Source of the DNA: Nitrospirota bacterium
GTDB taxonomy: Bacteria; Nitrospirota; Thermodesulfovibrionia; Thermodesulfovibrionales; UBA9159
NCBI GenBank assembly: GCA_963699545.1
Contig: CAVOUE010000005.1
Coordinates: 288,001 to 352,000 of the forward strand
Direction: 5' to 3'
Length of the DNA stretch: 64,000 nt
Part shown: piece after piece, positions 15,148 through 58,768 of the stretch
Numbering within the stretch: position 1 is the first letter of the stretch
Layout of the letters: every line of letters begins with the position of its first letter
Made by a program: the position numbers and the translations under genes
Notes under the pieces: model-generated
Told to the model about the DNA's origin: nothing
Seen by the model: only the letters and a program-made list of their open reading frames with translations
Database searches by the model: none

Positions 15148-16482
15148 TTACAGGATATATCTGCTGAGGTCTTCGTCTTTCACGATTTCCGAGAGCTGCG
15201 CACGGACATACTGTCTGTCGATGACCAGTTCACCGTCTTTCCTCTCCGGGGCCTCAAAGGACACATCCTCAAGGAGCTTCTCGAGCACCGTATGGAGCCT
15301 CCGCGCTCCGATGTTCTCGGTCTTCTCATTGACCAGCGCCGCGATATCCGCTATCTCATCAATGGCATCGTCGGTGAACTCAATCTTCATATCCTCGGTT
15401 GCCAGCAACGCGATATACTGCTTTGTGAGGGCATTGTTCGGTTCCTTAAGGATGCGTATGAACTCATCCTTGCCCAGATGCTCCAGTTCCACTCGTATGG
15501 GAAATCTTCCCTGCAGCTCCGGAATGAGGTCCGAAGGCTTTGTCATATGAAACGCGCCCGCCGCAATAAAAAGGATGTGGTCGGTGTGGACAGGGCCGTG
15601 CTTCGTCGTCACGGTGGAGCCTTCCACTATGGGCAGGAGGTCCCTCTGCACCCCTTCCCGCGATACGTCAGGACCGTAGCTTGACCCCTTGCTGGCGATC
15701 TTGTCGATCTCATCAAGAAAGACGATCCCTGCCTGTTCCACTCTCCCGATCGCTTCCCTGGTCACCCTGTCCATGTCGATAAGTTTGCCCGCCTCCTCCT
15801 GGACAAGCATGACCAACGCCTCCGGCACCCTGACCTTCTTCCTCTTCTGTTTCTCGGGAAGAAAGTTGCCGAGCATCTCTTTCAGATTGATCTCCAGGTC
15901 TTCAAGCCCGACATTGGACACGACGCCGAAGGGCATCGCCCTTTCCTTCACCTCGATGTCAACGTACCGGGAATCGAGCTTGCCCTCGCGGAGTTGCTGC
16001 CTCAGCCGTTCTCTCGTCTGGCGGTGTTTCTCCTTCTCCTCTTCAATATCGACCCCCCTAGCAGACCGGGGGGGAAGAAGGTAATCGAGCAGCCTTTCTT
16101 CGGCCAGGGCCCTTGCCCTTTCCTGGACCTTTTCCATATGCTCGGTCTTGACCATGTTCAGCGACAGTTCCGTGAGGTCCCTGATCATGGACTCAACGTC
16201 ACGGCCCACATATCCCACTTCGGTGAACTTTGACGCCTCGATCTTCAGGAAAGGCGCATTGGCAAGCCGTGCAAGTCTCCTGGCGATCTCGGTCTTACCG
16301 ACACCGGTGGGTCCTATCATGATGATATTTTTTGGAAGCACTTCATCCCTGATGTCGGCGGAGAGCCGCTGCCTCCTCCACCGGTTCCGTAACGCGACGG
16401 CGACCGCCTTCTTGGCCTTATGCTGGCCTATGATATAACGGTCCAGCTCTTCCACTATCCTCTTCGGTGTAAGATTATCCAT
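15148..16482 (-). CDS. hslU: ATP-dependent protease ATPase subunit HslU
   Basis: [43 protein letters not shown]. Confidence 0.97.
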
Positions 16483-28231: not shown

Positions 28232-29543
28232 ATGCATAGCAGGCGCATCTTACCCTTACTGCTTGTTACCTTTCTTCTCTCAATTGTCCCCCCTCTTTCT
28301 TCAAATGAAACTCCACGGGAGGTGATGGTCATCACCGTGGACGGCGTCATCAACCCTGTCTCATCGGAATATATCGGAAAAAGCATCAGGAAGGCAGTCA
28401 GCAAAGGGATGGAAGCGCTGGTGATAGAACTGGATACCCCGGGAGGTCTGGACACGTCGATGAGGAGGATTGTGAAAGACATTGTGAGCAGTGAAGTGCC
28501 GGTGGCGGTGTACGTTGCACCCAGCGGCGCACGGGCGGCATCTGCAGGGCGTATTCTTGACGCTTGCGGCCCATGTGGCCGCCATGGCCCCGGGGACCAA
28601 TATCGGCGCCGCACACCCCGTAGGCCTTGGTGAGAAAATGGACAAGACCATCGCCGAGAAGGCCACCAATGACGCGGCCGCGTATATCAAATCCCTGGCA
28701 GAAAGCAGGGGAAGGAACGCGCAGTGGGCCGAGAAGGCGGTACGGGAGAGCATATCCGCTACAGAAGGCGAGGCGTTGAAGGAACATGTGATCGACCTGG
28801 TGGAGAAGGATATCGCTTCTCTCCTTTCGGATATTGATGGCAGGAAGGTCAGGACCCCCTTTGGAGAGCGGACCCTCAGGACAAAGGACGCGAAGGTGGT
28901 CAGGGAAGAGATAAGCCTGAGACTGAGGATACTGAATTTCATCAGCGACCCCAATGTTGCCTATATCCTCATGCTCCTGGGGTTCTACGGTCTTTTCTTT
29001 GAGCTCACCAGCCCGGGCGCCATTTTCCCCGGCAGTGATGCAGGGGGCATATGCCTCATTCTCGCCTTTTACGCATTCCAGACATTGCCGGTCAATTACG
29101 CAGGTCTCCTCCTCATCATCCTGGCGGTCGTGCTCTTCATACTGGAGATGAAGATCGTCTCCCACGGGGTTCTGACCATCGGCGGGATCATTGCCATGAC
29201 CATCGGCTCCCTTATGCTCTTTGAATCTCCCGGACCCTTTGTGCGGCTCTCCCTTTATCTGGTCCTGCCCGCCGTCTTTATTACCGCCCTTTTCTTTTCG
29301 CCTCACCATCAGCCTTGCACTGAAGGCCCACAGGAGAAGACCTGTCACGGGAAAAGAAGAGCTCACCGGCATGGAAGGGGTCGCAAGAACGGACATCACC
29401 AGGGAGGGAGGCACGGTATCCCTTCACGGAGAGCTCTGGTCCGCCTTTTCAGATGATGCCATCGCAAGAAATGCAATAAGATAGTGGTCGAAGAAGTGAG
29501 GGATCTAAAATTGAAGGTACGCAAACAAAGGAGGGTAGTATGA
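28232..29543 (+). CDS. nfeD: NfeD membrane-bound ClpP-class serine protease (several frameshifts)
   Basis: LDTPGGL, PSGARAASAG, MAPGTNIGAAHPV, OB-fold tail G.V.LHGELWSA. Confidence 0.85.
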
Positions 29544-30318
29544 TGCCTTGTTAGACCACCATTTCTCATGACGGTGCTTTTTGCATTTTTCTTTGCCGCC
29601 TATATTCCTGTCGAGCGCGATCAAGATCCTCAAGGAATACGAGCGGGGGGTCGTCTTCAGGCTGGGCAGGATCATCCCTATCAAAGGACCGGGTCTTGTG
29701 ATCATCTGGCCCATCATCGACAAGCTCGTGAGGGTCAGTCTCAGAACAGTGACCTTCGACGTCCCGGCACAGGACATCATCACGAAAGACAATATCACGG
29801 TGAAGGTCAATGCGGTTGTCTACTTCAGGGTCATCGATCCTATAAAGGCGATCACTGCTGTCGAGGATTTTTTCTACGCAACGTCTCAGATTGCACAGAC
29901 CACTCTTCGCTCCATCCTGGGACAGAGCCAGCTTGACGACCTCCTCACCAAGAGGGACGAACTCAATTCAGAGCTCCAGAAGGTCATCGATTTCCAGACA
30001 GAGCCCTGGGGGATAAAGGTGTCTACCGTTGAGGTGAAGAACGTTGACCTTCCTGTTGAGATGCAGCGGGCCATCGCAAAACAGGCAGAGGCTGAGAGGG
30101 AAAGAAGGGCAAAGGTCATCCATGCAGACGGCGAATATCAGGCATCACAGAAGCTTGCAGATGCAGCACAGATAATGGCAACACAGCCGATGGCGATGCA
30201 GTTGAGGTACCTTGGGACCCTGACTGAAATTGCGAGTGAAAAGAATTCAACGATAATATTCCCTTTGCCCATCGACCTGATTAAACCATTGTTCGACAGG
30301 CTGGAGAAGAAGGACTGA
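29540..30318 (+). CDS. SPFH/stomatin (slipin) family protein (5' end disturbed by indels)
   Basis: [37 protein letters not shown]. Confidence 0.9.
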
Positions 30319-30359
30319 ACGCGGAAGAGAAGGCATAGTCATTGACCACCCGGACGAGG

Positions 30360-31126
30360 ATGAAAAACCATTAACAAGCGCGAGAAGCTAAAGCTCAGAT
30401 TGGAGCTCAGGCTCCTGATCTTCTGTTTCTCCTCATGGGCAGGGTTTACCTGGGACTCGTGTATGAGCTCGGGCATGATCCAAATTCTTTCTCGACAAGA
30501 AAAGAATGGTTGCGTTCCTGGACTCCCTGGGCCCTCTTTCCTTTATAGCATTCATCCTCCTCCAGGTGATACAGGTGGTTGCCGCTCCCATACCCGGTGA
30601 GGTCACCGGACTTCTGGGGGGCTTTCTCTACGGACCGGTGCTCGGAGTGGCCCTTTCCACCGTAGGCCTGACCATCGGTTCCTATGCCGCCTTTGCTCTC
30701 GCAAGGTCCTTCGGAAGACCCTTCGTGGAATGGTTTGTGGATAAAAGGGTCATGAAGAGATTCGACTATCTTCTCCATCACAAAGGGGCGTTCCTGGTCT
30801 TCCTGCTCTTTCTTATCCCGGGGTTTCCGAAGGACTATCTCTGTTATATCCTCGGCCTCGGACATCTCTCCACCGCCGAATTCCTCGTCATAGGCGGTGC
30901 CGGCAGGCTCTTCGGCACCATATTGCTGACCCTGGGAGGCAGCTACATACGCCATCATCAGTACCTGCGGTTCTTCGTTCTCGCAGGCGTCGCAATTATC
31001 GTTGTGTTCATTGCCATGGCTTACCGTGACAAGATAGAGAGGCTCCTCAGGAAATGGCACATCATGAAATACAGACAGCATAAAGCAAGAAAGTCAGCGC
31101 AGAAGAACGTTTTGCCGGGAGGATGA
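30360..31126 (+). CDS. TVP38/TMEM64 (VTT/SNARE-associated) membrane protein; start uncertain
   Basis: LQV..APIPGE.....GG..YG, FLIPGFPKD.L.Y..GL. Confidence 0.8.
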
Positions 31127-32611
31127 GTATGCTCAAGGACCTCAGTCCAAAGAAGACATTTGGTCTGATGCTCATTGCCGTGTATATCGTATCTCTCCCC
31201 ATCCTATCCTCCCTCACCTACGTTATCCTGAAGAACCAGGCTGTCAGAACCGCCTATAATGTGGGAAGAGTGCGACTCGTTAGCATGGAAGCGGTGAAGA
31301 CGTTTGTCGACGAGGAACTGAGGCCCATATTGTATCGCGAGTTGCCGGGAAGGTTCATTGTGGAGGGGATGTCCCGTTCCTATGTGGCGGGAGCTATCGC
31401 CCGCAGGGTTCAGAAGGAATATCCGGGGTATGTATACAAAAATGCATCCACTGCTCCCAAGAACATCGGTAATTCAGCCGACGACTTCGAGGCAAAGATC
31501 ATAAGCAGCTTTATAAAAGACCGCACGGTGAAGGAATGGAGCGGATTCAGAACAAGGTCTGATGGGGAGTATTACGTTATTGCAAAGGCGGGCGAAGCGT
31601 TCACTGAGCGTTGTCTCCCTCTGTCACGGTAATCCTGCCGGGGCACCCGTCGAGCTCCTGGAAAAGTACGGCGACCGTGCGGGGTTTCATATGACCATCG
31701 GTCAGCTCGTAGATGCAAAATTCGTTTATATCCCCATTGGTGTCCCCCTTGCAGAAGCGAGGAGGATCGTGGCGATCTTCATAGGAATGTACACCGTGTT
31801 CTTCGGTGCCGTTCTCGTCATCATCAACGTGGATTTTACCCGCCTTTATGATCAGACCGCATCTGACAAAAGGAGGATCGAAGAGATCAACCTCGAACTC
31901 ATGAACCTGAACCACGACATGGAATCCATCATCTCCGAGAGGACGATGAACCTGATCGCCCTGAGCGTTGCGGACCGTGTCAGGAACCCGGCGGCGGCCA
32001 TCGCCGGGACCTTCAACCGTATTCTCAAGAAGGAAGCCCTCTCCGACCCTCTGAGGGAAAGGCTGAATGACCTGATGCTTGAGGCGGAGAAACTCGACAT
32101 CATTGTGAAGGACTATGAGACCATCCTGAAGGGCAGACAGGTCATGTTCAGGGTAGAGGACCTGAACGAGATTGTGAAGAGCGTTCTTCCGCTGGTGGAA
32201 AGCGAACGGAAAGATAAGGGCATCGCAATAAGACTGCTCCTCTCCGATACGTCTTCACAGTGCGTGGTGAACAGGCAGCTCATCAGGGTTGCAGTGCTCC
32301 ATGTGTTGAAAAACGCCGTCGAAGCCACGCCTGCCGGTGGCACCATACTCATAACGACGTCCTCTGACGAGGACACCATATCCCTCAGCATCTCAGATAC
32401 GGGCAAGGGGATCCCGGGGGAGGAAATACCGAAGATATTCAGTCTCTTTTACAGCACCAAGAAGCACCGGATAGGAATGGGATTGCCTCTGGTGAAGCAG
32501 ATACTTGAGGAACACAAAGGCGCTATCACCGTGGAAAGTGTCCTCGGAAAAGGGAGCACCTTCCGGATCGCCCTCCCGGTCAGGTGGTCGGAGCAGGAAC
32601 TCAAAGGGTGA
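31123..32611 (+). CDS. DUF3365/Tll0287-like heme-c sensor histidine-kinase-like protein (frameshift near 31620)
   Basis: TM-periplasmic domain P.N..N.AD.FE...CxxCHG.P..AP-TM; HATPase N, G1, F, G2 boxes; H-box reads ADRVRNP. Confidence 0.75.
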
Positions 32612-32859: not shown

Positions 32860-33924
32860 ATGGAACCGATGTCAGTTCATTATGATTTTTCGTTCCCTAC
32901 TGAAAAGACCAGGAAAACCGCTCACGTCCGTGAGGAAACAGACCGCTATTTTACTCTTCTGGAGATCGCCACTGCCCGGCTCAACAGAGAACTGGAGGCC
33001 CTCGAAAAACGGTGCTCTGACCCGTCAGAGCATGCCGAGGAACTTCTCCGCGCCACAGAAAAGGCGATCGACACTGCACTCGCTTCCTGTGCAGCATTTG
33101 AGGAAGGGGTAAAGGATGGGGACGTCATCCGCAATGCGCGAATTACCTTCCGTGAAAGAACGAATCGTCTCCTTTCAAAAAGTTATTGCCTGAACCGGAC
33201 AAGAACCTGGCCTCAGGGATCACAGGGTGACTACAAAACGCTGGATATCATCTACAGAAACACACCGATGTCCGACGGCATAGGATATTATCTTGACAGA
33301 TACATGCTTTCTGCGCCGCTCGCCACTGGAGTGCGAGAGAGAATCGCAAAACTGGAAGAACTCCTCAGGGAGGAACTCGTTTGCAGACAGGCCCCAAAGA
33401 TCCTTGACGTAGCATGTGGCTCATGCCGCGAGGTTTTAGGGTTAGTCCCGGAAATCGAGGCGTCAGGAGCTCAGTTTACCTGCATCGATCTGGATTCGGA
33501 AGCCCTTGATTTTGCGATGAATCGCCTTTCATACGCCGGTTTCCGGGAAGGACAGGTCGAATTCCTCAGATACAACGCGCTCAGGATGTTCGATCACGAA
33601 ATGAACATGCAGGAATTCGGGATGCAGGACATCATTTACAGTGTGGGCTTCTTTGATTACCTTCCCGATGACTTCCTCACAAAATTGCTCAGTGCTCTCT
33701 ATCTGCTCCTCAAGCCAGGGGGAAAACTCATAGCTTCCTTTAAGGATGCAAACCGTTACAAGTCCCAGCCATATCATTGGCTGGGTGACTGGGATGGTTT
33801 CCTGCAGAGGAATGAGACTGACTTTAAGCGCATCCTCTCTGATGCCGGGATTCCGCACTTTGCACGAGCAGAGGCACGTGTAGAATCGGGAACGATAATC
33901 TTTTACACAGTGACCAAACAGTAA
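32860..33924 (+). CDS. Class I SAM methyltransferase, PhcB-like
   Basis: WPQGSQGDY..L..IY.N.P...G.G..LD.Y; ILDVACGSCRE; YSVG.FDYL. Confidence 0.7.
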   Translation: MEPMSVHYDFSFPTEKTRKTAHVREETDRYFTLLEIATARLNRELEALEKRCSDPSEHAEELLRATEKAIDTALASCAAFEEGVKDGDVIRNARITFRERTNRLLSKSYCLNRTRTWPQGSQGDYKTLDIIYRNTPMSDGIGYYLDRYMLSAPLATGVRERIAKLEELLREELVCRQAPKILDVACGSCREVLGLVPEIEASGAQFTCIDLDSEALDFAMNRLSYAGFREGQVEFLRYNALRMFDHEMNMQEFGMQDIIYSVGFFDYLPDDFLTKLLSALYLLLKPGGKLIASFKDANRYKSQPYHWLGDWDGFLQRNETDFKRILSDAGIPHFARAEARVESGTIIFYTVTKQ

Positions 33925-33955
33925 GAGTTTATTGCGGATTATACTATAATACCTC

Positions 33956-34717
33956 ATGGCAGACAGGGGATTGCTCTCTGATAGGGTAGCCATCGTCACC
34001 GGAGGAACGCGGGGCATAGGACGCGCGGTCGTCCGCGCGCTCTGCGGAGAAGGCGCAGACTGTGCGTTCACCTATACGAAGAGCCACCAGCTTGCGGAAT
34101 CTCTGGTTCAGGAGATGCAGCTCACGGGCAGGCGCATGCGCGCCGTGCAACTTGATGTGAGGGATTTTGAAGGCGCCAAGCTACTCGTCGAACAGGTGAA
34201 AAAGGAACTTGGAAGGCTTGATATTCTTGTGAACAACGCCGGGATTACGCGGGACAGGTCCCTCATGACGATGACGAGGGAGGAATGGACCGAGGTGATC
34301 GATACGGACCTCACTGGGGTCTTCAACATCACCCGCGCCTGCATCATCACCTTTTTGAAACAGAAGAGCGGGAACATAGCGAACATTTCATCGGTGGGCG
34401 GGATTCATCCCCTTCCGGGACAGGTAAATTATGCTGCGGCAAAGGCAGGGGTGATCGGTTTCACGAAATCACTTGCGAAGGAGGTGGCGCGTTACAATAT
34501 CAGGGTAAATGCGGTTGCCCCCGGCTTTATCGAGTCAGATATGACAGCAGCCCTCGACGGGAAATACCGGAGGCGTCTCCATGAATCGATACCCGCCGGA
34601 AGGTTCGGAACACCCAATGAGGTCGCAGAGGCGGTGCTCTTTCTGCTCAGCGATGAATCCGGGTATGTTACGGGAGAGGTAATAGAGATCGACGGAGGAC
34701 TGGGACTTTCAGGTTAG
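33956..34717 (+). CDS. fabG: 3-oxoacyl-ACP reductase (SDR)
   Basis: TGGTRGIG, NNAGITRD, Y.AAK, VAPGFI. Confidence 0.85.
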   Translation: MADRGLLSDRVAIVTGGTRGIGRAVVRALCGEGADCAFTYTKSHQLAESLVQEMQLTGRRMRAVQLDVRDFEGAKLLVEQVKKELGRLDILVNNAGITRDRSLMTMTREEWTEVIDTDLTGVFNITRACIITFLKQKSGNIANISSVGGIHPLPGQVNYAAAKAGVIGFTKSLAKEVARYNIRVNAVAPGFIESDMTAALDGKYRRRLHESIPAGRFGTPNEVAEAVLFLLSDESGYVTGEVIEIDGGLGLSG

Positions 34718-34718
34718 C

Positions 34719-35955
34719 ATGGAGAAAAAGATCGTTGTCACGGGCATAGGAGTTTTATCGCCTATCGGCATAGGCAGGAATAGTTACTGGGAAGCCCTGC
34801 TGCTGGGGAAACCAGGATTTAATCCTATCACCCTCTTTGACACATCGCCGTTTAATGTGCGTATCGCGGGCGAAATAGGCGATTTCGATCCTGCTGAATT
34901 CCTCGGCAAGAAAGGACTTCGCGAACTGGACAGGAGCGCGAGGCTGATATGCTCGGCCGCAAAGCTTGCCATTGATGATGCCCATCTCCAGGTGACGGCT
35001 GAAAATACCCATTCTGTGGGAGTCTCTATTGGAACAACCTTCGGGAGTCTCCACAGCATCTCAGAGTTTGACCGATCCGGTCTCATTGAAGGCCCGAGGT
35101 ATGTAAACCCGTCCCATTTCCCCAATACGGTCCTTAACTCGCCCGCGAGCCGGGTATCGATACGTTTTCAAATAAGGGGCTTTAATACGACCATTTCCAC
35201 GGGATTCTGCGCTGCCCTTGACGCCGTCTCCTATGCGTGTGACTTCATCAAATTGGAGAGGGCGAACGTCGTTCTCGCTGGGGGAGTTGAAGAGCTTTGC
35301 GAGGAAACCTTCCTCGGTTTTTATACCCTCGGGTATCTCTCGGGGATTGATGCCTCACCTCCTGTGAGCTGTCCGTTTGATGCGAGGAGGAATGGGATAA
35401 TTCTTTCCGAGGGTGCAGCGATACTGGTGCTCGAAGAAGTTCAGCATGCTCTGAACAGAGGTGCGGAAATCCTGGCAGCAGTAAAGGGTTGTGGAAACGC
35501 CTTTGACGCTTCGGCGAACGGGGATTTCGGGCACGGGAGAAGAGGTCTGAGAAACGCCGTCACTCGTGCACTGAGCGATGCAGCCCTTTCTCCAGAGGAT
35601 ATAGACTATATTTGCGCCGGTGCCAATTCCACAAAAGAACTTGACAGAGCGGAGAACTGCGGTGATCAAAGAGGTCTTCGGCAACCATGCCTATTCGCTG
35701 CCTGTGAGTTCGATAAAATCCATGGTGGGAGAGTCCTTCTCCGCCTCAGGTGGGCTGTCCCTGGCAGCTGCGGCGGGGGTCCTGCACAGCGGATTCATTC
35801 CTCCCACGATACATTATGAGCAGAGTGACCCTGAATGCGACCTCGATTATGTCCCCGGTGCTGCGAGACGGAAAGAGGTCAAGAATGTTCTTGTGCTCGC
35901 GTCCGATCCTTACGGGAATAACTCAGCCATCGTGCTGGGCAGATATGAACGGTGA
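34719..35955 (+). CDS. Ketosynthase-like protein lacking catalytic His residues (CLF-like); frameshift near 35650
   Basis: FabF fold; TGFCAA Cys region; HGTST replaced by GANST; GH replaced by GE. Confidence 0.8.
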
Positions 35956-35958
35956 ACC

Positions 35959-36402
35959 ATGCAACTTGACTTCGAAGAGATAAAAAGACTGATACCACAG
36001 AGATTCCCTTTCATTATGATCGATAAAGTGCTGGAACTCGAGCCCGGCAGGAAGGCGGTATCGGTAAAAAACATTTCGGGCAATGACATCTTCTTCCTCG
36101 GTCATTTCCCCGACAAGGCGATTATGCCCGGTGCCGCGATCATAGAGGCCATGGCACAGACAGCGATAGTCCTTTTTGCAGCCGCAAAGGGGAACGAAGG
36201 GACTGATGCGAAACCCCTCTACTATTTTGGGTCTGTGAAGGCACGTTTTCTCCATCCTGTAGTTCCGGGCGATCAATTAAAAATAACCGTAGTGAATGTT
36301 AAAACACTCCCGCACGGCGCATATGTCTCGGCAGAGGCATTTGTCGATGGGAAAAAGGTCTCAGAAGCTGAACTTGTGTTTAGCACGAAGGGAGAAGCGT
36401 AA
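35959..36402 (+). CDS. fabZ: 3-hydroxyacyl-ACP dehydratase
   Basis: P.RFPF.MID, F.GHFP...MPG..IIEAMAQ, PV.PGD. Confidence 0.85.
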   Translation: MQLDFEEIKRLIPQRFPFIMIDKVLELEPGRKAVSVKNISGNDIFFLGHFPDKAIMPGAAIIEAMAQTAIVLFAAAKGNEGTDAKPLYYFGSVKARFLHPVVPGDQLKITVVNVKTLPHGAYVSAEAFVDGKKVSEAELVFSTKGEA

Positions 36403-36432
36403 TCTTTTTTGCACCTTTTTCAGGAGGAGATT

Positions 36433-37293
36433 ATGTCGGATGAAAACAAAGTAGCGCGCAATATAATAAAAAGCTATTCTGAGAACATAGGATTCATGGT
36501 CTATACAGCAGAAGAACTTCAAAAATTGTACCAGACCCTGGGGATAGATCCCAAAAGCACGAACAGAAGCATCTTCGACCTCGAGAGCATGTCACACCAC
36601 CTGCAATCGGAAGTTATAAAGTTGATCAAAATGATGAATATCACGAAAGATGATGTAGTCTTGGACGCGGGATGTGGGAATGGAGCCCCGACAAGGCTCA
36701 TCGCCAAGACCTGTGGTTGCAAAATCAGGGGATTCGATATCAATCCTGATCAGATCAAAAAAGCGGCGGCATGTAACCGTTTCCAGGGTGTGGACCATCT
36801 CATAGCACTGTCGGTCAAAGATGTGCATGAAGTGGATTACCCCCACTGCACATTCGATAAGGTTTTTCACAACGAAACGATCTGTCACTGGATGGACAAA
36901 CGGACCGCATTATCAGGGCTGTTCAATGTGCTGAAAAAAGGCGGCATTATGGGTTTTCATGACTGGGCAAAAGGAGAAAAAGGAGATCTTAATGAGGCCG
37001 GCGGCGACTTTCCCGGGACGTACGCTGAAAGTGTGTGGTTTCAGCACAGCATTGAAGAGACGCGGCGATTATTAGAAGAAGCGGGATTTTCCCTGCTTCG
37101 CTCTGAAGATACAACTGATATCGTGGATCGAGGACTACGGGCCAAATTAAGAGAATTGGAGATGTCAAAAGATTATTACATAAGAAGCGGTTATGAGGAA
37201 TATTTCTTAAAATCAGTGCGCTATTGCAACATCATGCTTAAAACCCACTATGACTATCTGAAATATGGAAGATTTTTGTGTATGAAAAATTAG
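36433..37293 (+). CDS. Class I SAM methyltransferase
   Basis: VLDAGCGNG, GFDI, FD.V...E..CH, LKKGG. Confidence 0.85.
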   Translation: MSDENKVARNIIKSYSENIGFMVYTAEELQKLYQTLGIDPKSTNRSIFDLESMSHHLQSEVIKLIKMMNITKDDVVLDAGCGNGAPTRLIAKTCGCKIRGFDINPDQIKKAAACNRFQGVDHLIALSVKDVHEVDYPHCTFDKVFHNETICHWMDKRTALSGLFNVLKKGGIMGFHDWAKGEKGDLNEAGGDFPGTYAESVWFQHSIEETRRLLEEAGFSLLRSEDTTDIVDRGLRAKLRELEMSKDYYIRSGYEEYFLKSVRYCNIMLKTHYDYLKYGRFLCMKN

Positions 37294-37313
37294 AACATAA
37301 CGATGACCAAATC

Positions 37314-38525
37314 ATGATAAAAACTCGACGAATAGTGATAACAGGATTAGGGGTCATATCTTCAATCGGTATCGGTTGGAAGGAATTCTGGAATAGTCTT
37401 TTGAAGGGTACCTCAGGCATAAGTCCCGTGTCCTCATTCGACACTTCACTGTATCCCACACATTTCGGCGGCGAGGTCAAAATCTTCAAACCCGAGGAGT
37501 TTATCGCTAAAGAACGCTTAAACGTCATGAACCGCGCTACCCAGATGGCGCTGGCTGCTACAAAACTCGCATTAAAGGATGCTGCCCTGGCCCCCGAAGA
37601 GTTGGCAAACTACAACGTTGGGGTCTCTCACGGAACGACACTCGGTGCTGCGCAGACCATAGAAGAGGTAGATGTGCTCCTCATTGATAAGAAACCGATA
37701 GATAAGCGGGTCTTCTGTCAGATGCCGACACATGCGCCGCCCTCCGTGATAGCCACCGAATTTAAATGTGGCGGACCGAATTTCATGTTCTCTACAGCCT
37801 GCGCAGCAGGAAATTATGCGATCGCTTATGGCTTTGACCTCATCAGATTGAATAAGGCCGACATCGTGATTGCGGGAGCGTCAGATCCTTTTTCGCGGAT
37901 TGAATACACAGGCTTTAATCAATTCTCCGCGGTCGCTCCTGAAAAATGCCAGCCCTTTGACAAGAACAGAAAAGGCATGATGCTGGCGGAAGGAGCTGGG
38001 ATACTTGTCCTCGAACCTCTCGAGAGTGCCGCAAAGAGAAACGCGCCTATCTATGCCGAAATTCTGGGATATGGCCTGAGCTGCGACGCCTTCCATATGA
38101 CGACTGCCACTGTTGAAGGAATTGCGGAGTGCATGCGAAAGGCAATGAGAGAGGCGGGCATCGCGGTCGGGGACGTCGACTATATAAGTGCCCATGGTAC
38201 GGGAACAGTGGCAAACGACAGAGTTGAATGCGCAGCGATTAAAGAGGTCTTCGGACCTCGTTCTCAACAGGTACCAGTGAGCTCTATCAAATCCATGCTC
38301 GGCCATACAATGGGAGCGGCATCAGCAATCGAAGCAATCACCTGTGCCCTCGTTGTAAAGCATGACGTCATTCCACCGACCATAAACTTTGAGACTCCCG
38401 ATCCCGAATGTGACATCGACTGCGTTCCGAACAAGGCACGGCACCACACCGCCCATATAGCCCTGAACAACTCTTATGCGTTTGGAGGGAATAACGCTTG
38501 TCTGGTAATAAAAAAACTTGTATAA
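37314..38525 (+). CDS. fabF: Beta-ketoacyl-ACP synthase II (active KS)
   Basis: TACAAG, HGTGT, KSMLGH, N.YAFGGNN: complete Cys-His-His triad. Confidence 0.85.
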   Translation: MIKTRRIVITGLGVISSIGIGWKEFWNSLLKGTSGISPVSSFDTSLYPTHFGGEVKIFKPEEFIAKERLNVMNRATQMALAATKLALKDAALAPEELANYNVGVSHGTTLGAAQTIEEVDVLLIDKKPIDKRVFCQMPTHAPPSVIATEFKCGGPNFMFSTACAAGNYAIAYGFDLIRLNKADIVIAGASDPFSRIEYTGFNQFSAVAPEKCQPFDKNRKGMMLAEGAGILVLEPLESAAKRNAPIYAEILGYGLSCDAFHMTTATVEGIAECMRKAMREAGIAVGDVDYISAHGTGTVANDRVECAAIKEVFGPRSQQVPVSSIKSMLGHTMGAASAIEAITCALVVKHDVIPPTINFETPDPECDIDCVPNKARHHTAHIALNNSYAFGGNNACLVIKKLV

Positions 38526-38613
38526 TAGGTCAGTTATAAAGTTCATTATAAGGTTTTGTTAAACATTTATCTGGTAACATTTTAAAATTACAGGGATTCA
38601 GGAGGATACGCTG

Positions 38614-38850
38614 ATGGCTGACGTCGAAAGTGAGATCATCTCGATAATATCCGAGGTCTCAGGGGTAGATGTTGAAGAAATTTCGCTTGATTCCGACCTG
38701 GCGAGTGACCTGGAGATCGACTCGATCAAGGCCATCGAGATTGTCGTGGCGATCGAAAAAAAATTTAAGATTTCGATTCGTGATGAAGATATCCGCAACA
38801 TCACCACGACAAGGCAAATAGTGGACCTAACAAGAACTTTGTTTCCCTAG
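38614..38850 (+). CDS. acpP: Acyl carrier protein
   Basis: 78 aa acidic; DL.IDSI...EI...IE..F.I.I. Confidence 0.85.
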   Translation: MADVESEIISIISEVSGVDVEEISLDSDLASDLEIDSIKAIEIVVAIEKKFKISIRDEDIRNITTTRQIVDLTRTLFP

Positions 38851-38970
38851 GGAAGGTCTCATTGAATTCTCACAAGGAGAGCTTGCATGAGCACGGTGAT
38901 ACCCGTATACTGACCTCTGTACCGAAAGAGATTTTTTGACAACGTAGCTTAACAGAATAATCATTATGGT

Positions 38971-41139
38971 ATGGGAAAAGATACCTACATAAAGCAGGAA
39001 CTTCTCAATTTGACAAGATTCTGGCTGACCTTCGGTCTCATTGGAGGGGCCCTCGTCTTTGCCTTGCTCAGCGCCCTCGATTATTTGGTCACCCCGGAGA
39101 ATTTCTTGAGATTCTTGCTTTATAGAATAACCTGTGTCTGCTTAATGATTGTTCTCCATTTCATCAATAGAAAAGTCTCGCGGGAACTCACCCAAAAGAT
39201 ATTAATTGCCTTAACCGTTATTCTCGTGTCATCGACAGTAGAGCTTATGATTCTCTTTTTTGGAGGTCATCAGTCAACGTACTATGCAGGCATTATCATC
39301 ACGGTCGTTTTTTTACTTGGGATTCTCCCCCTTCATTTTAAAATGTCCTTTTTTTTGGTATCCATTGCTTATTCTATTTACCTTTTTCCGATCTTGCTCT
39401 TTGACCGTATTACGAATGTCGAATTATTTATTAGCAACAATGCATTCTTGCTGGCTATTGTTATGATCGCCCTTACATGGAGATTCCTTAGCCAGAGAAG
39501 CCTCATAAATGAACTTGGCCTCCAATACGAACTTGATAAAGATAAACGCGAACTCGAAAAGTATTCCACCAACCTCCAAGAATTAGTCAGTGAGCGGACA
39601 AAGGAACTGAACAAATCCGAGACCATGCTGAAGGCGCTCTTCGAAAATGCAAATGACGGGATCATGATCATGAACAGGGACGGTATAATACTCGACGTGA
39701 ACCAGAAGGCATGCGACATCCACGGGTTCGACAGGGCCGCTCTCATCGGAACGAATATCAAGCTTCTCGAGACCCAGGAAAACCAGCATTCATACAGGGA
39801 CCGTATGGAACGCATCGTGAACGGTGAGTCGCTGCTCTTCGAAACCCAGCACTACCGGAGGGACGGGACCAGGATCTCGCTCGAGATCAGTTCCAAGGCG
39901 GTAGAGGTCGAAGGCAACACGTATATCCAGTCATTCCACAGGGACATCACCGAAAAAAAGAGGCTCCATCAACAGCTTTTCCAGTCTCAGAAAATGGAAT
40001 CCATCGGGGTCCTCGCAGGCGGCATCGCCCATGACTTCAACAATATCCTGTCCGCCATCCTCGGTCACGCTGAGCTGTTGCATGAATTCAGCACTCTTGA
40101 CGCCCAGGGGAAAGAGAGGGTCAGGATCATAGAGAATTCGGCGCGCAAGGCCGGCCAGATGATATCGAAGCTCCTCAGTTTTGCCCGCAAGGGAACCTTC
40201 GAAAGCGTGCCCATAGATCTCAATGACATCGTAAAGGATACCGCCGAGCTTCTGGAGCGTATGATGACAAAGAGAAACGTTGCGATCAGAATGGACATCA
40301 GCGGCACCCTGCCTCCTGTTGAAGGTGATGCAAACCAGTTGGAGCAGGTCGTCATGAATATCATCGTGAATGCAGGGGATGTAATGCCGAACGGTGGCGT
40401 TATCACCGTTGCGACCTCCTCAGTGGACCTTCAGAGGGATGCCCGCCAGGTTCATCCCCTCCTGGAGCCGGGGAAATATGTGGTCATCAAGATCACGGAC
40501 ACGGGCCCCGGCATCCCTGAGGAAATACGGGACAAGATCTTCGACCCGTTCTTCACGACCAAGGGTCCGGGAAAAGGCACCGGCCTTGGGCTCGCCATGG
40601 TGTACGGCATCGTGAAAGAGCATCGGGGAGTGATCAACGTGAGGACAAAGCTGGGAAGAGGCACCACGTTCGAGATCTATCTGCCGGCGTCCGGCAAGCT
40701 CATCCCGCGTCTGGAACGTCCTCTTGTCTCTTCCGTGGCGGGACGCGAAAAGATACTGGTGGTGGATGACGAAGAAGACATTGTCAGTTTCATAAAGGAT
40801 GTCCTGGAATCGCAGGGATATAAGGTGCTGGCCACGACAAATCCGGTGTATGCGCTGGATATCTTCAAGGAAATAAACGATACCATAGACTTGGTCATCT
40901 CCGACATAATCATGCCCCTGGTGAACGGAAGAGAGCTCATCGGGCATTTTAAATTGATCAAGCCTGCCGTCAGAATATTGGCGATCTCGGGCTACGAAGC
41001 GGGAACCATCGGTAAGAACGACCGGGACATCAACGGATTTATCAGAAAACCCTTCGAGGGCACTTACCTCCTCACTGTGGTGAGAAGGGTGCTCGATACA
41101 GCGGGTGCTTCTTCCTCACCACGGCGCATGCCTCTCTAA
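38971..41139 (+). CDS. Hybrid sensor histidine kinase: multi-TM sensor (PhcS-like), PAS, HisKA, HATPase, REC
   Basis: LDY.V.PE....FL.YR and GG..S.YYAG in TM region; AGGIAHDFNN; FFTTK..GKGTGLGL; VVDDE...D..MP...KP. Confidence 0.9.
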   Translation: MGKDTYIKQELLNLTRFWLTFGLIGGALVFALLSALDYLVTPENFLRFLLYRITCVCLMIVLHFINRKVSRELTQKILIALTVILVSSTVELMILFFGGHQSTYYAGIIITVVFLLGILPLHFKMSFFLVSIAYSIYLFPILLFDRITNVELFISNNAFLLAIVMIALTWRFLSQRSLINELGLQYELDKDKRELEKYSTNLQELVSERTKELNKSETMLKALFENANDGIMIMNRDGIILDVNQKACDIHGFDRAALIGTNIKLLETQENQHSYRDRMERIVNGESLLFETQHYRRDGTRISLEISSKAVEVEGNTYIQSFHRDITEKKRLHQQLFQSQKMESIGVLAGGIAHDFNNILSAILGHAELLHEFSTLDAQGKERVRIIENSARKAGQMISKLLSFARKGTFESVPIDLNDIVKDTAELLERMMTKRNVAIRMDISGTLPPVEGDANQLEQVVMNIIVNAGDVMPNGGVITVATSSVDLQRDARQVHPLLEPGKYVVIKITDTGPGIPEEIRDKIFDPFFTTKGPGKGTGLGLAMVYGIVKEHRGVINVRTKLGRGTTFEIYLPASGKLIPRLERPLVSSVAGREKILVVDDEEDIVSFIKDVLESQGYKVLATTNPVYALDIFKEINDTIDLVISDIIMPLVNGRELIGHFKLIKPAVRILAISGYEAGTIGKNDRDINGFIRKPFEGTYLLTVVRRVLDTAGASSSPRRMPL

Positions 41140-41158: not shown

Positions 41159-42461
41159 TTAGAGTTTTCTCCTGTCGACAACGCGCTTCGCCTTCCCCTC
41201 AAACCGGTCGAGGGTCTTCTTCTCGACCAGTTTCACGTCAACGGCAATGCCGAGTTCCGAAGAGAGCCTCCTCCTGATGAGGCCAACCAGTTCGCTCTGT
41301 TTCTTCATCTCGTCAAAGAATATGGACTCCGACACCTCAACAAGCACCGTCACATCGTCAAGGGCTCCCCTCCTGTCCACGATGATCTGGTAGTGGGGCT
41401 CCGTTCCTTCGATATCGCAGAGCACGGTCTCGATCTGGGAGGGGAAGACATTCACTCCCCGTATGATGAGCATGTCATCAGTCCTCCCCATCACCCTGGA
41501 CATCCTCATGAACTTCCTGCCGCAGGCACATGGGTCGGGCATCAGCCTCGTGAGATCCCTCGTCCTGAACCGTATAACAGGGAACGCCTCTTTTGTGAGC
41601 GTCGTGATGACCAATTCACCGATTTCCCCCGGGGCCACAGGTTCCAGGGTGTTGCGGATCAACCACCTCCACAAGGAAGTGGTCTTCGTTGATGTGAAGT
41701 CCGTTACGCTCAAGGCATTCGCCTGCCACGCCCGGACCCATGACCTCGCTCAGGCCATAGTTGTCCGTTGCCATGATCTTCAGTCTTGCCTGTATCTCCT
41801 GCCGCATCCCCTCGGACCATGGCTCTGCTCCGAAAAGTCCGTACTTCAGGGAAAGCGAATTCACATTGATCCCCATGTCCTGTATGGTATCGGCGATCAG
41901 GAGGGCGTAACTGGGGGTGCAGATCAGGGCCGTGGTCTTGAAGTCCTGCATGATCTTCACCTGCCGCCTCGTGTTGCCGCTGGAAATGGGGATGACCGAT
42001 GCACCGACTCTCTCTGCGCCGTAATGCAGGCCGAACCCGCCGGTGAAAAGACCGTACACCGAAGGCTATCTGGACCACATCGTCCTTTGTGATCCCTCCG
42101 GCAGTGAGGACCCTCGCCACAAGGTTCGACCATGTCTTTATATCGTTTTTCGTATATCCGACCACCGTCGACATCCCGGTGGTGCCGGAGGAGGCATGGA
42201 TCCGTACCACTTCCCTTAAGGGTACTGCAAACAAACCGTAGGGATAGTTGTCCCTCAGGTCGTCCTTCTGTGGTGAACGGAAGATTCCTGAGGTCGCTTG
42301 AGCGATGTGAAGTCATCGGGGTCTATCTCCAGCTCGTCAAACTTCTTCCTGTAGAAGGGAACGTTCAGATACACCCGGTGCAATGTGGATTGGAGCCTTT
42401 CCAGCTGGAGCTGTTCGAGTTCTTCCCGTCCTATGGTCTCATATTCAGGTTCCCAATACAT
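41159..42461 (-). CDS. paaK: Phenylacetate-CoA ligase family (split by three frameshifts)
   Basis: [50 protein letters not shown]. Confidence 0.85.
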
Positions 42462-54648: not shown

Positions 54649-55629
54649 CTACCACCTGATCAGCGCGGAGGCCCAGGTGAGACCGCCGCCGAAGGCCTCC
54701 AGAAGCAGGTAATCGCCATTCCTGACCTTCCCGCCCTTCACCGCCTCATCGAGGGCAATGGGAATAGAAGCCGCTGACGTATTCCCGTATCTGTCGAGGT
54801 TGATCATCACTTTTTCCATGGGGAGACCCAGCCTCCTGGCCGTGGCCTGTATTATCCGGAGATTGGCCTGGTGGGGTATGAGGAGGGCGATGTCCGAGGC
54901 CTTCAGTTTGTTCTCCTTCAGGCTTTCCACCACAAGACTCTCCAGAGTCCTCACCGCCACCTTGAAGGTCTCGTTCCCCTTCATCTTGATAAAGTGAAGC
55001 CTTTTCTTCACTGTCTCCTTCGAAGCGGGATTCCTGGACCCGCCGCCGGGTGTGTGAAGCAGCTCCCACAAACTTCCGTCAGAATGGATCTTTGTCGAGA
55101 CGATGCCACGGTCTTCTTCCGTTGCCTCAAGCACAACAGCACCTGCGCCGTCCCCGAACAGAACACAGGTAGTCCTCTCTTCCCAGTCAGTGAACTTCGT
55201 GAGCACCTCGGCCCCCACTACAAGGATCCTCCGGTATGTCCCGCTCAGTATATAGGCATTGGCAACGGAAAGACCGAAGATGAAACCTGAGCATGCAGCA
55301 TTCACGTCAAAGGCGGCCGCCTTTTTCGCCTCCAGTTTATCCTGAAGGATACAGGCAGTTGCAGGCAACGGCATATCCCCCGAAACCGAGGCAACAATGA
55401 TGAGCTCTATATCCTTCGCCTTGAGGCCGGCGCTCTTCAGAGCCGCTCTTGATGCTCCAAACGCGAGATCTGACGCGGCCTGTTTTTCGGTAGAGATCCT
55501 CCGTTCCTTGATCCCTGTCCTCTCGATAATCCAATCGTCCGACGTGTCCACCATCTTTTCGAGGTCATGATTGCTGAGGATGGTCTCCGGCACGTATGAA
55601 CCTGTTCCGATTATCCTAGCCCTGAGCAC
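54649..55629 (-). CDS. fabH: Beta-ketoacyl-ACP synthase III
   Basis: AACSGF, FGDGAGA, HQAN.RI, GNTSAASIP, FGGGLTW. Confidence 0.95.
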   Translation of the reverse strand: MLRARIIGTGSYVPETILSNHDLEKMVDTSDDWIIERTGIKERRISTEKQAASDLAFGASRAALKSAGLKAKDIELIIVASVSGDMPLPATACILQDKLEAKKAAAFDVNAACSGFIFGLSVANAYILSGTYRRILVVGAEVLTKFTDWEERTTCVLFGDGAGAVVLEATEEDRGIVSTKIHSDGSLWELLHTPGGGSRNPASKETVKKRLHFIKMKGNETFKVAVRTLESLVVESLKENKLKASDIALLIPHQANLRIIQATARRLGLPMEKVMINLDRYGNTSAASIPIALDEAVKGGKVRNGDYLLLEAFGGGLTWASALIRW

Positions 55630-56626
55630 TCTTCCCTCCGCTCTTTATTCCCTCCCTGATGATCTCATGCACCTTCTTTCTCGAGAACTCCGCGGCAGCC
55701 TTTATCGCATTCCTGATGGCCTTCGCGGAAGACCTCCCGTGACTGATAATACAGGTTCCATTGATCCCGAGCAACGGCGCGCCCCCGTATTCGGCATAAT
55801 CTGTCTTCCTCCTGAAATTCCTGAGGGCAGGTTTCATCAGGAGATACCCTATACGACCGGTCGTTATGTCTGCGATCTCCCTCTTCAGCATCTTCAGGAT
55901 CACCTCGGCAAGACCCTCGCTTGTCTTAAGCACGATATTTCCGATGAAACCATCGCAAACCACCACATCGGCGTGCCCCGTGAAGATATCCTTGCCTTCG
56001 ATGTTCCCTATGAACCGTATCCCGCCATCTCTGAGCAGCTTGAACGCCTCTTTCGTGAGCACGTTGCCCTTGGTATCCTCTTCCCCGATGCTCAGGAGCG
56101 CGATCTTCGGCTGAGGATTGTTCAGCATGGTCTTGCAGTATGCATCACCCATGAGTGCGAACTGGAGGAGGTTCTCGGGACTGCAGTCCACATTGGCGCC
56201 TGCATCGATCAGCACAAAGGGGCCTTTGATGGTGGGCATCATGGTAGCAATAGCGGGTCGGTGGACGCCCTCGGAAGTGCCGAGCATGAAAAGGGCCATC
56301 GCCATAGCAACCCCTGAATGGCCTGCGCTCACCACGGCGTCGGCCTCACGGTTCTTTACCAGCTCGATCGCCCTTTTGATGGAAGAATCCTTCTTTTTTC
56401 TTATGGCGGCGACGGCAGGTTCATCCATCCCCACAACCTGCGACGCATGCCGGATATAAAGCCTGGTCGGCGGGTACCTCTTACCGGAAAGTTCCCTCTT
56501 TATCGAAGGTTCATCGCCCACAAGGGCGATTTCGATATCTTCACTTTCATTGACCGTCTCAACTGCGCCCTCGACAGTAACCGCAGGGGCAAAGTCACCC
56601 CCCATCGCATCAAGAGCAATTCTCAT
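55616..56626 (-). CDS. plsX: Phosphate acyltransferase PlsX
   Basis: IALDAMGGD.AP, D.GAN.D, GEE..KG, DGF.GN..LK..EG, HGRS. Confidence 0.96.
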   Translation of the reverse strand: MRIALDAMGGDFAPAVTVEGAVETVNESEDIEIALVGDEPSIKRELSGKRYPPTRLYIRHASQVVGMDEPAVAAIRKKKDSSIKRAIELVKNREADAVVSAGHSGVAMAMALFMLGTSEGVHRPAIATMMPTIKGPFVLIDAGANVDCSPENLLQFALMGDAYCKTMLNNPQPKIALLSIGEEDTKGNVLTKEAFKLLRDGGIRFIGNIEGKDIFTGHADVVVCDGFIGNIVLKTSEGLAEVILKMLKREIADITTGRIGYLLMKPALRNFRRKTDYAEYGGAPLLGINGTCIISHGRSSAKAIRNAIKAAAEFSRKKVHEIIREGIKSGGKSAQG

Positions 56627-58739: not shown

Positions 58740-58768
58740 GAATAAAAACGATAGAAGGAGGCTAGAGC

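Follow-up and report, generated by a model that had tools for sequence, protein, structure and literature searches.

A candidate Phc-type methyltransferase and sensor kinase pair enclosing a Cluster I-type acyl-chain module in Nitrospirota

Genes of the locus and their conservation

The DNA analysed here, called the window, is a stretch of 64,000 nucleotides from contig CAVOUE010000005.1 of a Nitrospirota bacterium (assembly GCA_963699545.1, positions 288,001 to 352,000), and all coordinates refer to it. Its + strand holds a run of eight co-oriented genes at 32860-41139, defined by a listing of open reading frames (ORFs) together with Pfam and NCBIfam scans (Table 1), just as described in an earlier note that had been made from the sequence without database searches. 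The run begins with a gene for a class I S-adenosylmethionine (SAM) methyltransferase, here called MT1, and ends with a gene for a hybrid sensor histidine kinase. In the plant pathogen Ralstonia and in Cupriavidus the phcBSRQ genes encode a system in which PhcB makes methyl 3-hydroxymyristate or methyl 3-hydroxypalmitate and the kinase PhcS senses the product. Both bracketing genes of the window are homologous to the phcB/phcS-type pair of Burkholderiaceae, and the pairing of a Phc synthase homolog with a Phc sensor-domain homolog is conserved across dozens of genomes of uncultured, anaerobic Nitrospirota. Between the two genes lie those for two ketosynthase-type proteins (KS1 and KS2), FabG, FabZ, an acyl carrier protein (ACP) and a second methyltransferase (MT2). 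The spacing within the run ranges from a 16-base overlap up to the 120 bases that separate the ACP and kinase genes, and the placement of MT1 and the kinase in one operon is predicted from the gene order, with one strand and short gaps.

Table 1. Positions of the genes and domains discussed
Feature	Position	Strand	Basis or remark
MT1, class I SAM methyltransferase, 354 residues	32860-33924	+	Pfam class I methyltransferase domains
FabG-type 3-oxoacyl-ACP reductase	33956-34717	+	TIGR01830 302.9 bits, cut-off 297.75
KS1, ketosynthase-like, without catalytic triad	34719-35955	+	+1 frameshift near 35654/35655
FabZ dehydratase, amxFabZ type	35959-36402	+	NF000582 139 bits, cut-off 113
MT2, second class I SAM methyltransferase	36409-37293	+	Pfam Methyltransf_11/31/25
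KS2, FabF-type ketosynthase, amxFabF2 type	37278-38525	+	PDB 9s5h_B 481.7 bits
ACP	38614-38850	+	PF00550, 55 bits
Hybrid sensor histidine kinase, 722 residues: multi-transmembrane N-terminus (about 190 residues), PAS, HisKA, HATPase, REC	38971-41139	+	Pfam
Kinase membrane sensor domain, residues 1-195, MASE8-like and PhcS-like	38971-39555	+	hhalign; weak MASE8 match
plsX	55616-56626	-	away from the gene run
fabH	54649-55629	-	away from the gene run

Of 8000 scored candidates, 743 are relatives of MT1 at E ≤ 1e-3, the closest apart from MT1 itself being 66% identical, and those with a name come from metagenome-assembled genomes of Nitrospirota or Thermodesulfovibrionales; an exhaustive HMMER search returned 3502 representative clusters at E ≤ 1e-3, of which 163 reach E ≤ 1e-30. 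Gene order was followed in the best 80 of 169 confirmed relatives in species-representative genomes (MT1 identity 47-66%), onto which the window proteins were mapped by tblastn; 40 of these loci reach at least 7.9 kb downstream of MT1 and are called full loci. A same-strand kinase with the same membrane domain follows downstream in 38 of the 40 full loci, the exceptions being L037, which ends inside the cluster, and L053, and fab genes stand between MT1 and the kinase in 35. The arrangement goes far beyond chance, because it recurs in dozens of related genomes, and the co-occurrence of the bracketing genes with fab genes elsewhere, on which the earlier note had made its proposal depend, is thereby found. 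Among the 67 loci with at least 1.2 kb of sequence downstream of MT1, the first gene after it encodes FabG in 36, KS1 in 25 and the kinase in six, FabG being absent where KS1 follows directly. Since MT1 and the kinase are adjacent and fab genes are missing in these six loci (L063, L071, L074, L075, L076 and L077), MT1 and the kinase constitute the core and the fab genes an insert. The surroundings of the fab-less pair in the two of them that were examined, L074 and L063, are ordinary housekeeping genes.

The content of the insert varies. MT2 occurs in five of the 40 full loci (L002, L022, L026, L029 and L041) and is thus a variable accessory tailoring gene. Most relatives carry, between the ACP and kinase genes, a gene of about 470 codons that is absent from the window and encodes a flavoprotein resembling CrtI/phytoene dehydrogenase (PF01593; PDB 4dgk, E 7e-26). 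Matches to it were found in 28 of the 40 full loci, 27 of them intact and one, in L035, a remnant of 159 bases (15236-15394) between ACP and kinase, from which loss of the tailoring gene by deletion in place follows. A gene for a B12-binding radical SAM enzyme is present in three full loci (L034, L037 and L059). The junction ahead of the tailoring gene seems to be an insertion hot spot: in L019 (6153-8054) and L024 (15707-17972) the ACP and CrtI-like genes are separated by inserted toxin-antitoxin-type pairs (nucleotidyltransferase/HepT, DUF433/DUF5615) and by an IS110 transposase. Upstream of MT1, the window (28491-31126, + strand) and many relatives, for example L014-L016, L018 and L074, carry the membrane genes NfeD, SPFH/stomatin and VTT/DedA, whereas other loci have a gene for an ABC transporter ATPase in their place, so that the cluster occupies at least two genomic contexts.

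The earlier note had called MT1 PhcB-like on the basis of a motif, WP.G..GD. This assignment is borne out by profile comparison: the profile of the MT1 family matches a profile of 14 Burkholderiales PhcB-type sequences with an hhalign probability of 99.0% (E 3e-18, 278 columns) and the 468-residue methyltransferase encoded on plasmid pPHS1_P of Paraburkholderia graminis with 98.9% (E 1.1e-17, 266 columns). The alignment with the PhcB group spans the helical region, the Rossmann fold and the motif, which reads TWPQGxQGDY in one family and TKPLGYAGDY in the other. The Burkholderiales group includes Cupriavidus proteins, and some of its members are named 'Regulatory protein' or 'EF 3-hydroxypalmitic acid methyl ester biosynthesis protein'; the pPHS1_P methyltransferase itself is 64-92% identical to proteins of 463-468 residues from Cupriavidus, Massilia, Pseudoduganella and Janthinobacterium. 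In a direct BLASTP comparison MT1 is 25% identical over 267 residues to P0442 of Cupriavidus (E 5e-15). Moreover, 13 of the 120 MT1 homologs listed bear the Joint Genome Institute (JGI) name 'extracellular factor (EF) 3-hydroxypalmitic acid methyl ester biosynthesis protein'. The AlphaFold2 model of MT1 (mean predicted local distance difference test score 87.1) consists of a helical N-terminal domain and a Rossmann-fold methyltransferase. The full PhcB architecture of about 465 residues is not present in the window: the alignment begins at MT1 residue 69 versus residue 169 of the PhcB group, and MT1 is here a short form without the N-terminal PilZ-type domain. Long forms account for 41 of the 75 complete MT1 ORFs in the loci, and Pfam finds PilZ in four of eight MT1 representatives scanned and did not detect it in two scanned proteins of the PhcB group. 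On these alignments MT1 belongs to the PhcB family, and it is proposed as the signal synthase.

Other resources say less about MT1. NCBIfam gives it generic methyltransferase matches only, all below threshold and hence no name, the PDB sequence search returned two weak matches, and the ESM Atlas places MT1 in unnamed methyltransferase clusters and the kinase N-terminus in MASE-type clusters. A tblastn search of plasmids with MT1 yielded no Ralstonia or Cupriavidus record and found the weak match on pPHS1_P. The best E-value in that search belonged to a type I polyketide synthase (PKS) of an Enterobacter ludwigii plasmid (L084, 1631-4768), in which a domain matches MT1 residues 101-291 with 28.6% identity (E 2e-9). 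Identity of MT1 or MT2 with the anammox methyltransferase AmxMT1 (8HD2) was considered and rejected, 8HD2 being absent from the PDB matches of MT2 and of the MT1 profile. Remote MT1 relatives in Rhizobium (L081, 2499-5714) and Roseateles (L082, 2406-6817) adjoin genes for GGDEF-EAL proteins with multi-helix N-termini, and in the Roseateles locus a PAS-GGDEF protein is also encoded beside the MT1-family gene. The membrane N-termini of these GGDEF-EAL proteins show no relation to the kinase domain by hhalign (E 0.041, probability 1.3%). The PilZ fusions and the GGDEF-EAL neighbours together hint at a link between the MT1 family and cyclic di-GMP.

For the kinase, the earlier note had pointed to a PhcS-like transmembrane region with the patterns LDY.V.P and S.YYAG. 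A profile of 20 membrane domains indeed matches the N-terminus of the pPHS1_P kinase with an hhalign probability of 97.7% (E 2.5e-12, 163 columns), and the stretches LDYxVxP and QSxYYAG are aligned between the two; among 30 shuffles of the target the best score was 22.2 versus 82.9 for the real sequence. Significant similarity to both PhcB and PhcS, as judged against their Burkholderiaceae relatives, is thus present. The pPHS1_P operon encodes, in this order, a methyltransferase (468 residues), a kinase (445 residues), a response regulator (134 residues) and a further response regulator (344 residues), a layout that, by the sizes of the Ralstonia genes, would be that of phcBSRQ; by this order and these lengths the pPHS1_P kinase would be an ortholog of PhcS. 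A gene for a protein of the cyclopropane-fatty-acyl-phospholipid synthase family lies about 1 kb upstream of this Paraburkholderia operon (L083, 3331-4353). In the window no separate response regulator gene adjoins the kinase gene, the downstream gene being the convergent paaK-type gene, and the kinase has its own REC domain. In L069 (6772-11049) and L010 (19314-19892) the kinase or its membrane domain occurs twice in succession. By its homology the kinase is proposed as the receptor.

How does the enclosed module relate to housekeeping fatty acid synthesis? KS2 is, by its residues, an active-type ketosynthase with an intact Cys-His-Lys-His signature, which 45 of 49 aligned rows share, the other four being seemingly KS1-type genes picked up where KS2 was cut off. 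Its best match in the PDB is 9s5h_B (E 1.5e-143, about 58% identical as estimated by eye), followed by 6kxd, labelled 'Ketosynthase' and presumably the ishigamide enzyme, with 336.8 bits, while the best structure labelled 3-oxoacyl-ACP synthase 2 (FabF) reaches 322.5 bits. The ketosynthase-like gene of the earlier note, KS1, is likewise present, and two of its properties had been missed: it is frameshifted in the window, and the protein lacks the whole Cys-His-His triad, for which reason it is predicted to be a dead partner and not a second synthase. In the window the triad columns read F-G-(K)-E; across the family none of 52 sequences has a His in either His column, Glu being invariant in the second, and Phe occupies the Cys column in 48 of 52, including the window, a Cys near this column being one position off that of the catalytic Cys. 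The KS1 ortholog of the relative L018 matches PDB 9s5h_C with 412 bits (next match 283). KS1 is, on this pattern, a catalytically dead, chain-length-factor-like partner of the amxFabFmut type.

The names amxFabF2 and amxFabFmut come from 'Cluster I' of anammox bacteria, KustE3603-3608, the putative gene cluster for ladderane lipids, which encodes amxACP, amxFabZ, amxFabF2, amxFabFmut, a homolog of phytoene dehydrogenase and a B12 radical SAM protein, amxFabF2 and the triad-less amxFabFmut forming a heterodimer like that of a KS and a chain length factor (CLF) and seemingly favouring C6 and C8 (10.64898/2026.05.19.726425). From the combination of a heterodimer with an ACP chain we infer that 9s5h and 9s5i are structures of this study, in whose available text the codes do not appear. 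The five best PDB matches of FabZ (8AYD, 7QV0, 8AYB, 8AYI and 8AYC) are the anammox-specific FabZ proteins of Kuenenia and Scalindua, which differ diagnostically from canonical FabZ in having a tunnel-narrowing Ile69 in place of the tunnel Gly (PMC10139942). At this position, set by alignment to 8AYB and to that description (PMC10139942), the FabZ of the window has Ile70, and Ile is found in all 43 FabZ sequences of the loci and the window. The ACP falls below the cut-off of every NCBIfam ACP equivalog; anammox-type structures are fourth and fifth among its PDB matches (9s5i_E with 47.4 bits and 7auf with 44.7), slightly below ACPs of Streptomyces type. The nearest solved relatives of MT2 are phosphoethanolamine N-methyltransferases (68 bits). 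By these relationships the fab module is distinct from the housekeeping pathway and the Nitrospirota counterpart of Cluster I. The dedicated acyl-chain pathway of the earlier note, bracketed by a proposed synthase and a proposed receptor, is what lies between MT1 and the kinase; its affinity to Cluster I had been missed.

Of the remaining features, plsX and fabH lie elsewhere, as had been noted (54649-56626, minus strand). No Rfam family was found anywhere in the 64-kb window, hence no riboswitch ahead of MT1, and a promoter/terminator scan did not rise above the shuffled background (14 vs 7.9±3.1 and 12 vs 8.6±3.3). A NiFe hydrogenase, whose small and large subunits are encoded at 57654-60478 (+ strand), fits an anaerobic, hydrogen-using host.

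The mosaic kinase and the interrupted KS1 frame

The closest genome to that of the window is L018, and its similarity is uneven along the locus. NfeD and SPFH proteins are 92% identical, the paaK-type protein 89% and the cytoplasmic part of the kinase 85%, whereas in the same comparison MT1 reaches 64%, the ACP 61% and the membrane domain of the kinase only 44%. Along the kinase, sliding identity to L018 is 35-55% over residues 1-190 and 80-95% over residues 200-720; towards L022 and L029, which are loci of the MT2 type, it is 75-85% over residues 80-200 and 35-75% over residues 200-720. The identity switches near residue 195, at about 39555. Trees built separately for the two parts place the membrane domain of the window with L029 and L022 and the rest of its kinase with L018; the reverse groupings are rejected by approximately unbiased (AU) tests (p 7e-5 and 5e-40). 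The 85 C-terminal residues of KS2 lean slightly toward L022 and L029 as well. The kinase is, by these alignments and trees, a mosaic of a sensor domain from an MT2-carrying lineage and a cytoplasmic part from the closest relative.

This decoupling of the two parts is also seen in the family at large. Among 35 kinases, distances in the membrane part and in the cytoplasmic part are uncorrelated (Spearman rho 0.095, with 146 of 999 permutations as high), whereas MT1 distances follow those of the membrane part (rho 0.366, 0 of 999 permutations as high). Cluster type, meaning the tailoring gene, requires 10 changes on the membrane-domain tree, where shuffles average 15.1 (0 of 200 as low), and is not clustered on the cytoplasmic tree (14 changes versus 15.2, 33 of 200 as low).

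The earlier note had seen an AT-richer part at 36.4-39.6 kb. The stretch is real: in 600-base windows the GC content is 0.40-0.48 at about 35.9-39.8 kb and 0.51-0.58 around it, and by gene it is 0.438 for MT2, 0.451 for the ACP and 0.403 for kinase residues 1-195, compared with 0.526 for the whole window. Part of it is intrinsic to the membrane domain, whose GC content is low in L018, L022 and L029 too (0.30-0.36). As whole loci, too, L022 and L029 have a lower GC content (0.42-0.45). The AT-rich stretch is thus consistent with import of the DNA but does not prove it, since some of the low GC content is a property of the membrane domain itself.

In KS1 the reading frame changes near 35654/35655, so that the listed ORF of 366 residues ends in out-of-frame residues; the true C-terminus of 100 residues lies in the frame of 35620-35955. 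KS1 occupies a single frame in all 51 relatives. Two genes nearby are interrupted in the same manner: a Tll0287-type sensor kinase gene (31123-32611, + strand) is split over two overlapping frames, and the paaK-type phenylacetate-CoA ligase gene downstream of the run (41159-42234, minus strand) is spread over three, so that KS1 and these two genes together show at least four frame changes within about 11 kb. Because nearby genes are also frame-split, the break in KS1 looks like an assembly error more than like decay.

A signalling interpretation and its alternatives

With a probability of roughly 0.55, we read the locus as a Phc-type synthase-sensor pair equipped with a private acyl factory of the Cluster I type and with exchangeable tailoring. 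We infer the substrate, the product, O-methylation, export and a density-dependent or cell-to-cell role along the following lines. KS2 and KS1 would build an acyl chain on the private ACP, probably a short to medium one by analogy with the anammox enzymes, which prefer C6-C8 (10.64898/2026.05.19.726425; PMC10139942). FabG and FabZ would yield 3-hydroxy or 2-enoyl intermediates, an enoyl reductase not being encoded in the locus. The variable tailoring enzyme, MT2 in the window and the CrtI-like flavoprotein in most relatives, would then modify the chain, and MT1 may methylate it, as PhcB does, to a neutral methyl ester able to leave the cell. The membrane domain of the kinase would sense this compound, and PAS, HisKA, HATPase and REC domains would pass the signal into a phosphorelay with a partner outside the locus.

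Several observations weigh against this interpretation. The identity of MT1 to the PhcB group is low (25%), and that of the membrane domain to the pPHS1_P kinase is lower still (18-21%); both comparisons were made through Burkholderiaceae relatives and not with Ralstonia's own PhcB and PhcS, and the Paraburkholderia operon that links them is annotated in generic terms only, with no NCBIfam model that names it. MT1 of the window is without the N-terminal part of about 160 residues of PhcB-type proteins, and the only structures that Foldseek retrieves with its model are generic methyltransferases of small molecules, among them C- as well as O-methylating ones. The name PhcS does not occur among the 120 listed kinase homologs, their JGI names being CckA or PAS proteins, the kinase of the window has PAS and REC domains that the Paraburkholderia kinase does not have, and no counterparts of PhcR, PhcQ or PhcA are found near it in the window. 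Neither a thioesterase nor an exporter is encoded in the locus, for the fab module the nearest relatives with a characterised role point to bulk membrane lipids and not to signals, and with a frameshifted KS1 the module may be inactive in this genome. As to the exchange of sensor domains, the clades in the AU tests were picked after the identity profile had been seen, plain physical linkage could suffice to explain the clustering of tailoring types on the membrane-domain tree, and MT1 was not co-transferred with the sensor domain in the mosaic of the window, its best match being that of L018 (64%).

An alternative reading takes the product of the fab module to be a specialised structural lipid or hydrocarbon, with MT1 and the kinase as its regulators, the membrane domain of the kinase monitoring the state of this lipid or of the membrane within the same cell, and with no communication between cells. 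We consider this unlikely, but it is the most serious of the alternatives. KS2, KS1 and FabZ are closest to anammox Cluster I proteins, the intact CrtI-like flavoprotein of 27 full loci and the B12 radical SAM enzyme of three correspond to other Cluster I components, every characterised relative of the module stands in a lipid context, and the membrane genes NfeD, SPFH and VTT/DedA lie upstream in many loci. In addition, similar clusters have been described in Desulfotalea, Geobacter and Pelobacter, where a phenylacetyl-CoA ligase gene is syntenic, and Desulfotalea has unusual polyunsaturated hydrocarbons (Rattray 2009, PMC2649909); a paaK-type gene is likewise found just downstream of the run in the window, and the available text of that study mentions no kinase with its clusters. 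A purely structural role is countered by the six loci in which MT1 and the kinase are paired without fab genes, by the homology of both to the phcB/phcS-type pair of Burkholderiaceae and by the position of the fab genes, which lie inside the MT1-kinase pair and not beside it; the NfeD-SPFH neighbourhood, for its part, is only one of at least two contexts, an ABC transporter gene being upstream elsewhere.

The interruption of KS1 suggests a different kind of alternative, namely that the frameshift is real, that the module is decaying or inactive and that at most the MT1-kinase pair works in this genome, as it would in the six fab-less relatives. The frame change in a gene that is uninterrupted in all 51 relatives speaks for this view, which we nevertheless hold to be improbable: the frame is broken in at least two further genes within 10 kb, which makes an assembly error likelier than selective decay, loci of long-read style (L013 and L035) are similarly fragmented across many genes, and all other genes of the module are intact. 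A chance association, in which a second housekeeping or stress-induced fatty acid synthesis operon happens to lie beside an unrelated methyltransferase and kinase, gains something from FabG and FabZ, which pass or nearly pass the housekeeping NCBIfam cut-offs. It is very improbable, since the order is kept in 35 of 40 full loci across Nitrospirota at MT1 identities of 47-66%, KS1 appears catalytically dead, KS2 scores 481.7 bits with the anammox-type ketosynthase against 322.5 with the best FabF structure, and plsX and fabH are present elsewhere in the window.

If the interpretation as a synthase-sensor pair is carried further, Phc-type lipid-ester signalling might be old and widespread in anaerobic Nitrospirota, its lineage 'dialects' depending on a private factory for short acyl chains and on an exchangeable tailoring enzyme (MT2, CrtI-like desaturase or radical SAM enzyme), and new dialects might arise by joint cassette exchange of tailoring gene, ACP and sensor domain. 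We put this forward tentatively, as a doubtful extension. Were it true, the anammox 'ladderane' Cluster I, which is called 'unique to ladderane-producing bacteria' in the abstract of its description (10.64898/2026.05.19.726425), would belong to a broader family of pathways for short modified acyl chains and would not be specific for ladderanes. A full-text literature search, by protein name and by the KEGG name and number of phcB, returned nothing that links PhcB with Nitrospirota, and no quorum-sensing system described for Thermodesulfovibrionia was found in the full-text literature, as judged by the listing and the abstracts; in the literature on Nitrospirota, ladderanes and antiSMASH such loci may have been counted as 'ladderane' clusters.

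If the locus does signal, it would stand for lipid-ester communication in subsurface anaerobes, and its swappable tailoring genes and sensor domains would amount to a natural series of signal-receptor pairs. Close homologs of the KS pair and of FabZ, diagnostic residues included, in bacteria other than anammox bacteria extend the 2009 observation in Deltaproteobacteria (PMC2649909). The Nitrospirota module moreover bears on the true product of Cluster I and offers more tractable sources of its enzymes.

Comparison with known systems

The system that the bracketing genes resemble most is phcBSRQ. The likeness comprises 1) a methyltransferase whose homology takes in the helical region, the (T)xPxGxxGDY motif and the Rossmann fold; 2) a kinase whose membrane domain is homologous to that of a kinase encoded beside a PhcB-group gene; 3) a synthase gene upstream of the kinase gene on one strand, the two being adjacent in six Nitrospirota relatives; and 4) a synthase and a sensor whose evolutionary history departs from that of the remaining genome, to be set beside PhcB and PhcS, which are reported to group by signal type and not by lineage (PMC7694676). 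C. taiwanensis has orthologs of phcB, phcS and phcQ, and the phc system is described as intact only in Cupriavidus and Ralstonia (PMC5995829). Unlike phcBSRQ, the Nitrospirota locus has six private genes of an acyl-ACP pathway between synthase and kinase and comes from another phylum, from anaerobic Nitrospirota. MT1 of the window, furthermore, is without the N-terminal 160 residues or so, long-form relatives carrying a PilZ domain that Pfam does not detect in the Burkholderiales group, and the kinase of the window has added PAS and REC domains and no PhcR, PhcQ or PhcA counterparts nearby.

The membrane domain also resembles MASE8 (PF20968). The model is matched over nearly its full length (positions 2-145 of 154) by the window kinase, and most of the 120 listed kinase homologs have a precomputed match to it. 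The score of the window kinase is 20.2 bits, below the gathering cut-off of 26.2, and that of the Paraburkholderia kinase is similarly weak over nearly the full length (17.6 bits). In the accessible text of the literature, a full-text search found no ligand for MASE8.

With the KS/CLF heterodimers of type II PKSs, such as those of actinorhodin and of ishigamide (Iga11/Iga12), the module shares an active KS beside an inactive homolog and the combination of ketoreductase and dehydratase without enoyl reductase. It differs from them in that the pair of the window resembles the anammox pair far more than it does any PKS pair, and in that no cyclase, aromatase or other PKS tailoring gene is present in the locus.

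The comparison with Cluster I is the closest for the module itself. An active KS gene has the gene of a dead KS just upstream, with 481.7 and 412 bits to chains B and C of 9s5h; FabZ has the diagnostic Ile and the ACP is private; and in relatives the CrtI-like gene (27 of 40) and the B12 radical SAM gene (three of 40) complete the likeness. The window differs in having neither a CrtI-like nor a radical SAM gene, with MT2 and FabG in their stead, and KS1 has Phe at the Cys position where amxFabFmut has Val or Thr (10.64898/2026.05.19.726425). Finally, the Nitrospirota module occurs in a host that is not an anammox bacterium, and it sits between signalling genes.

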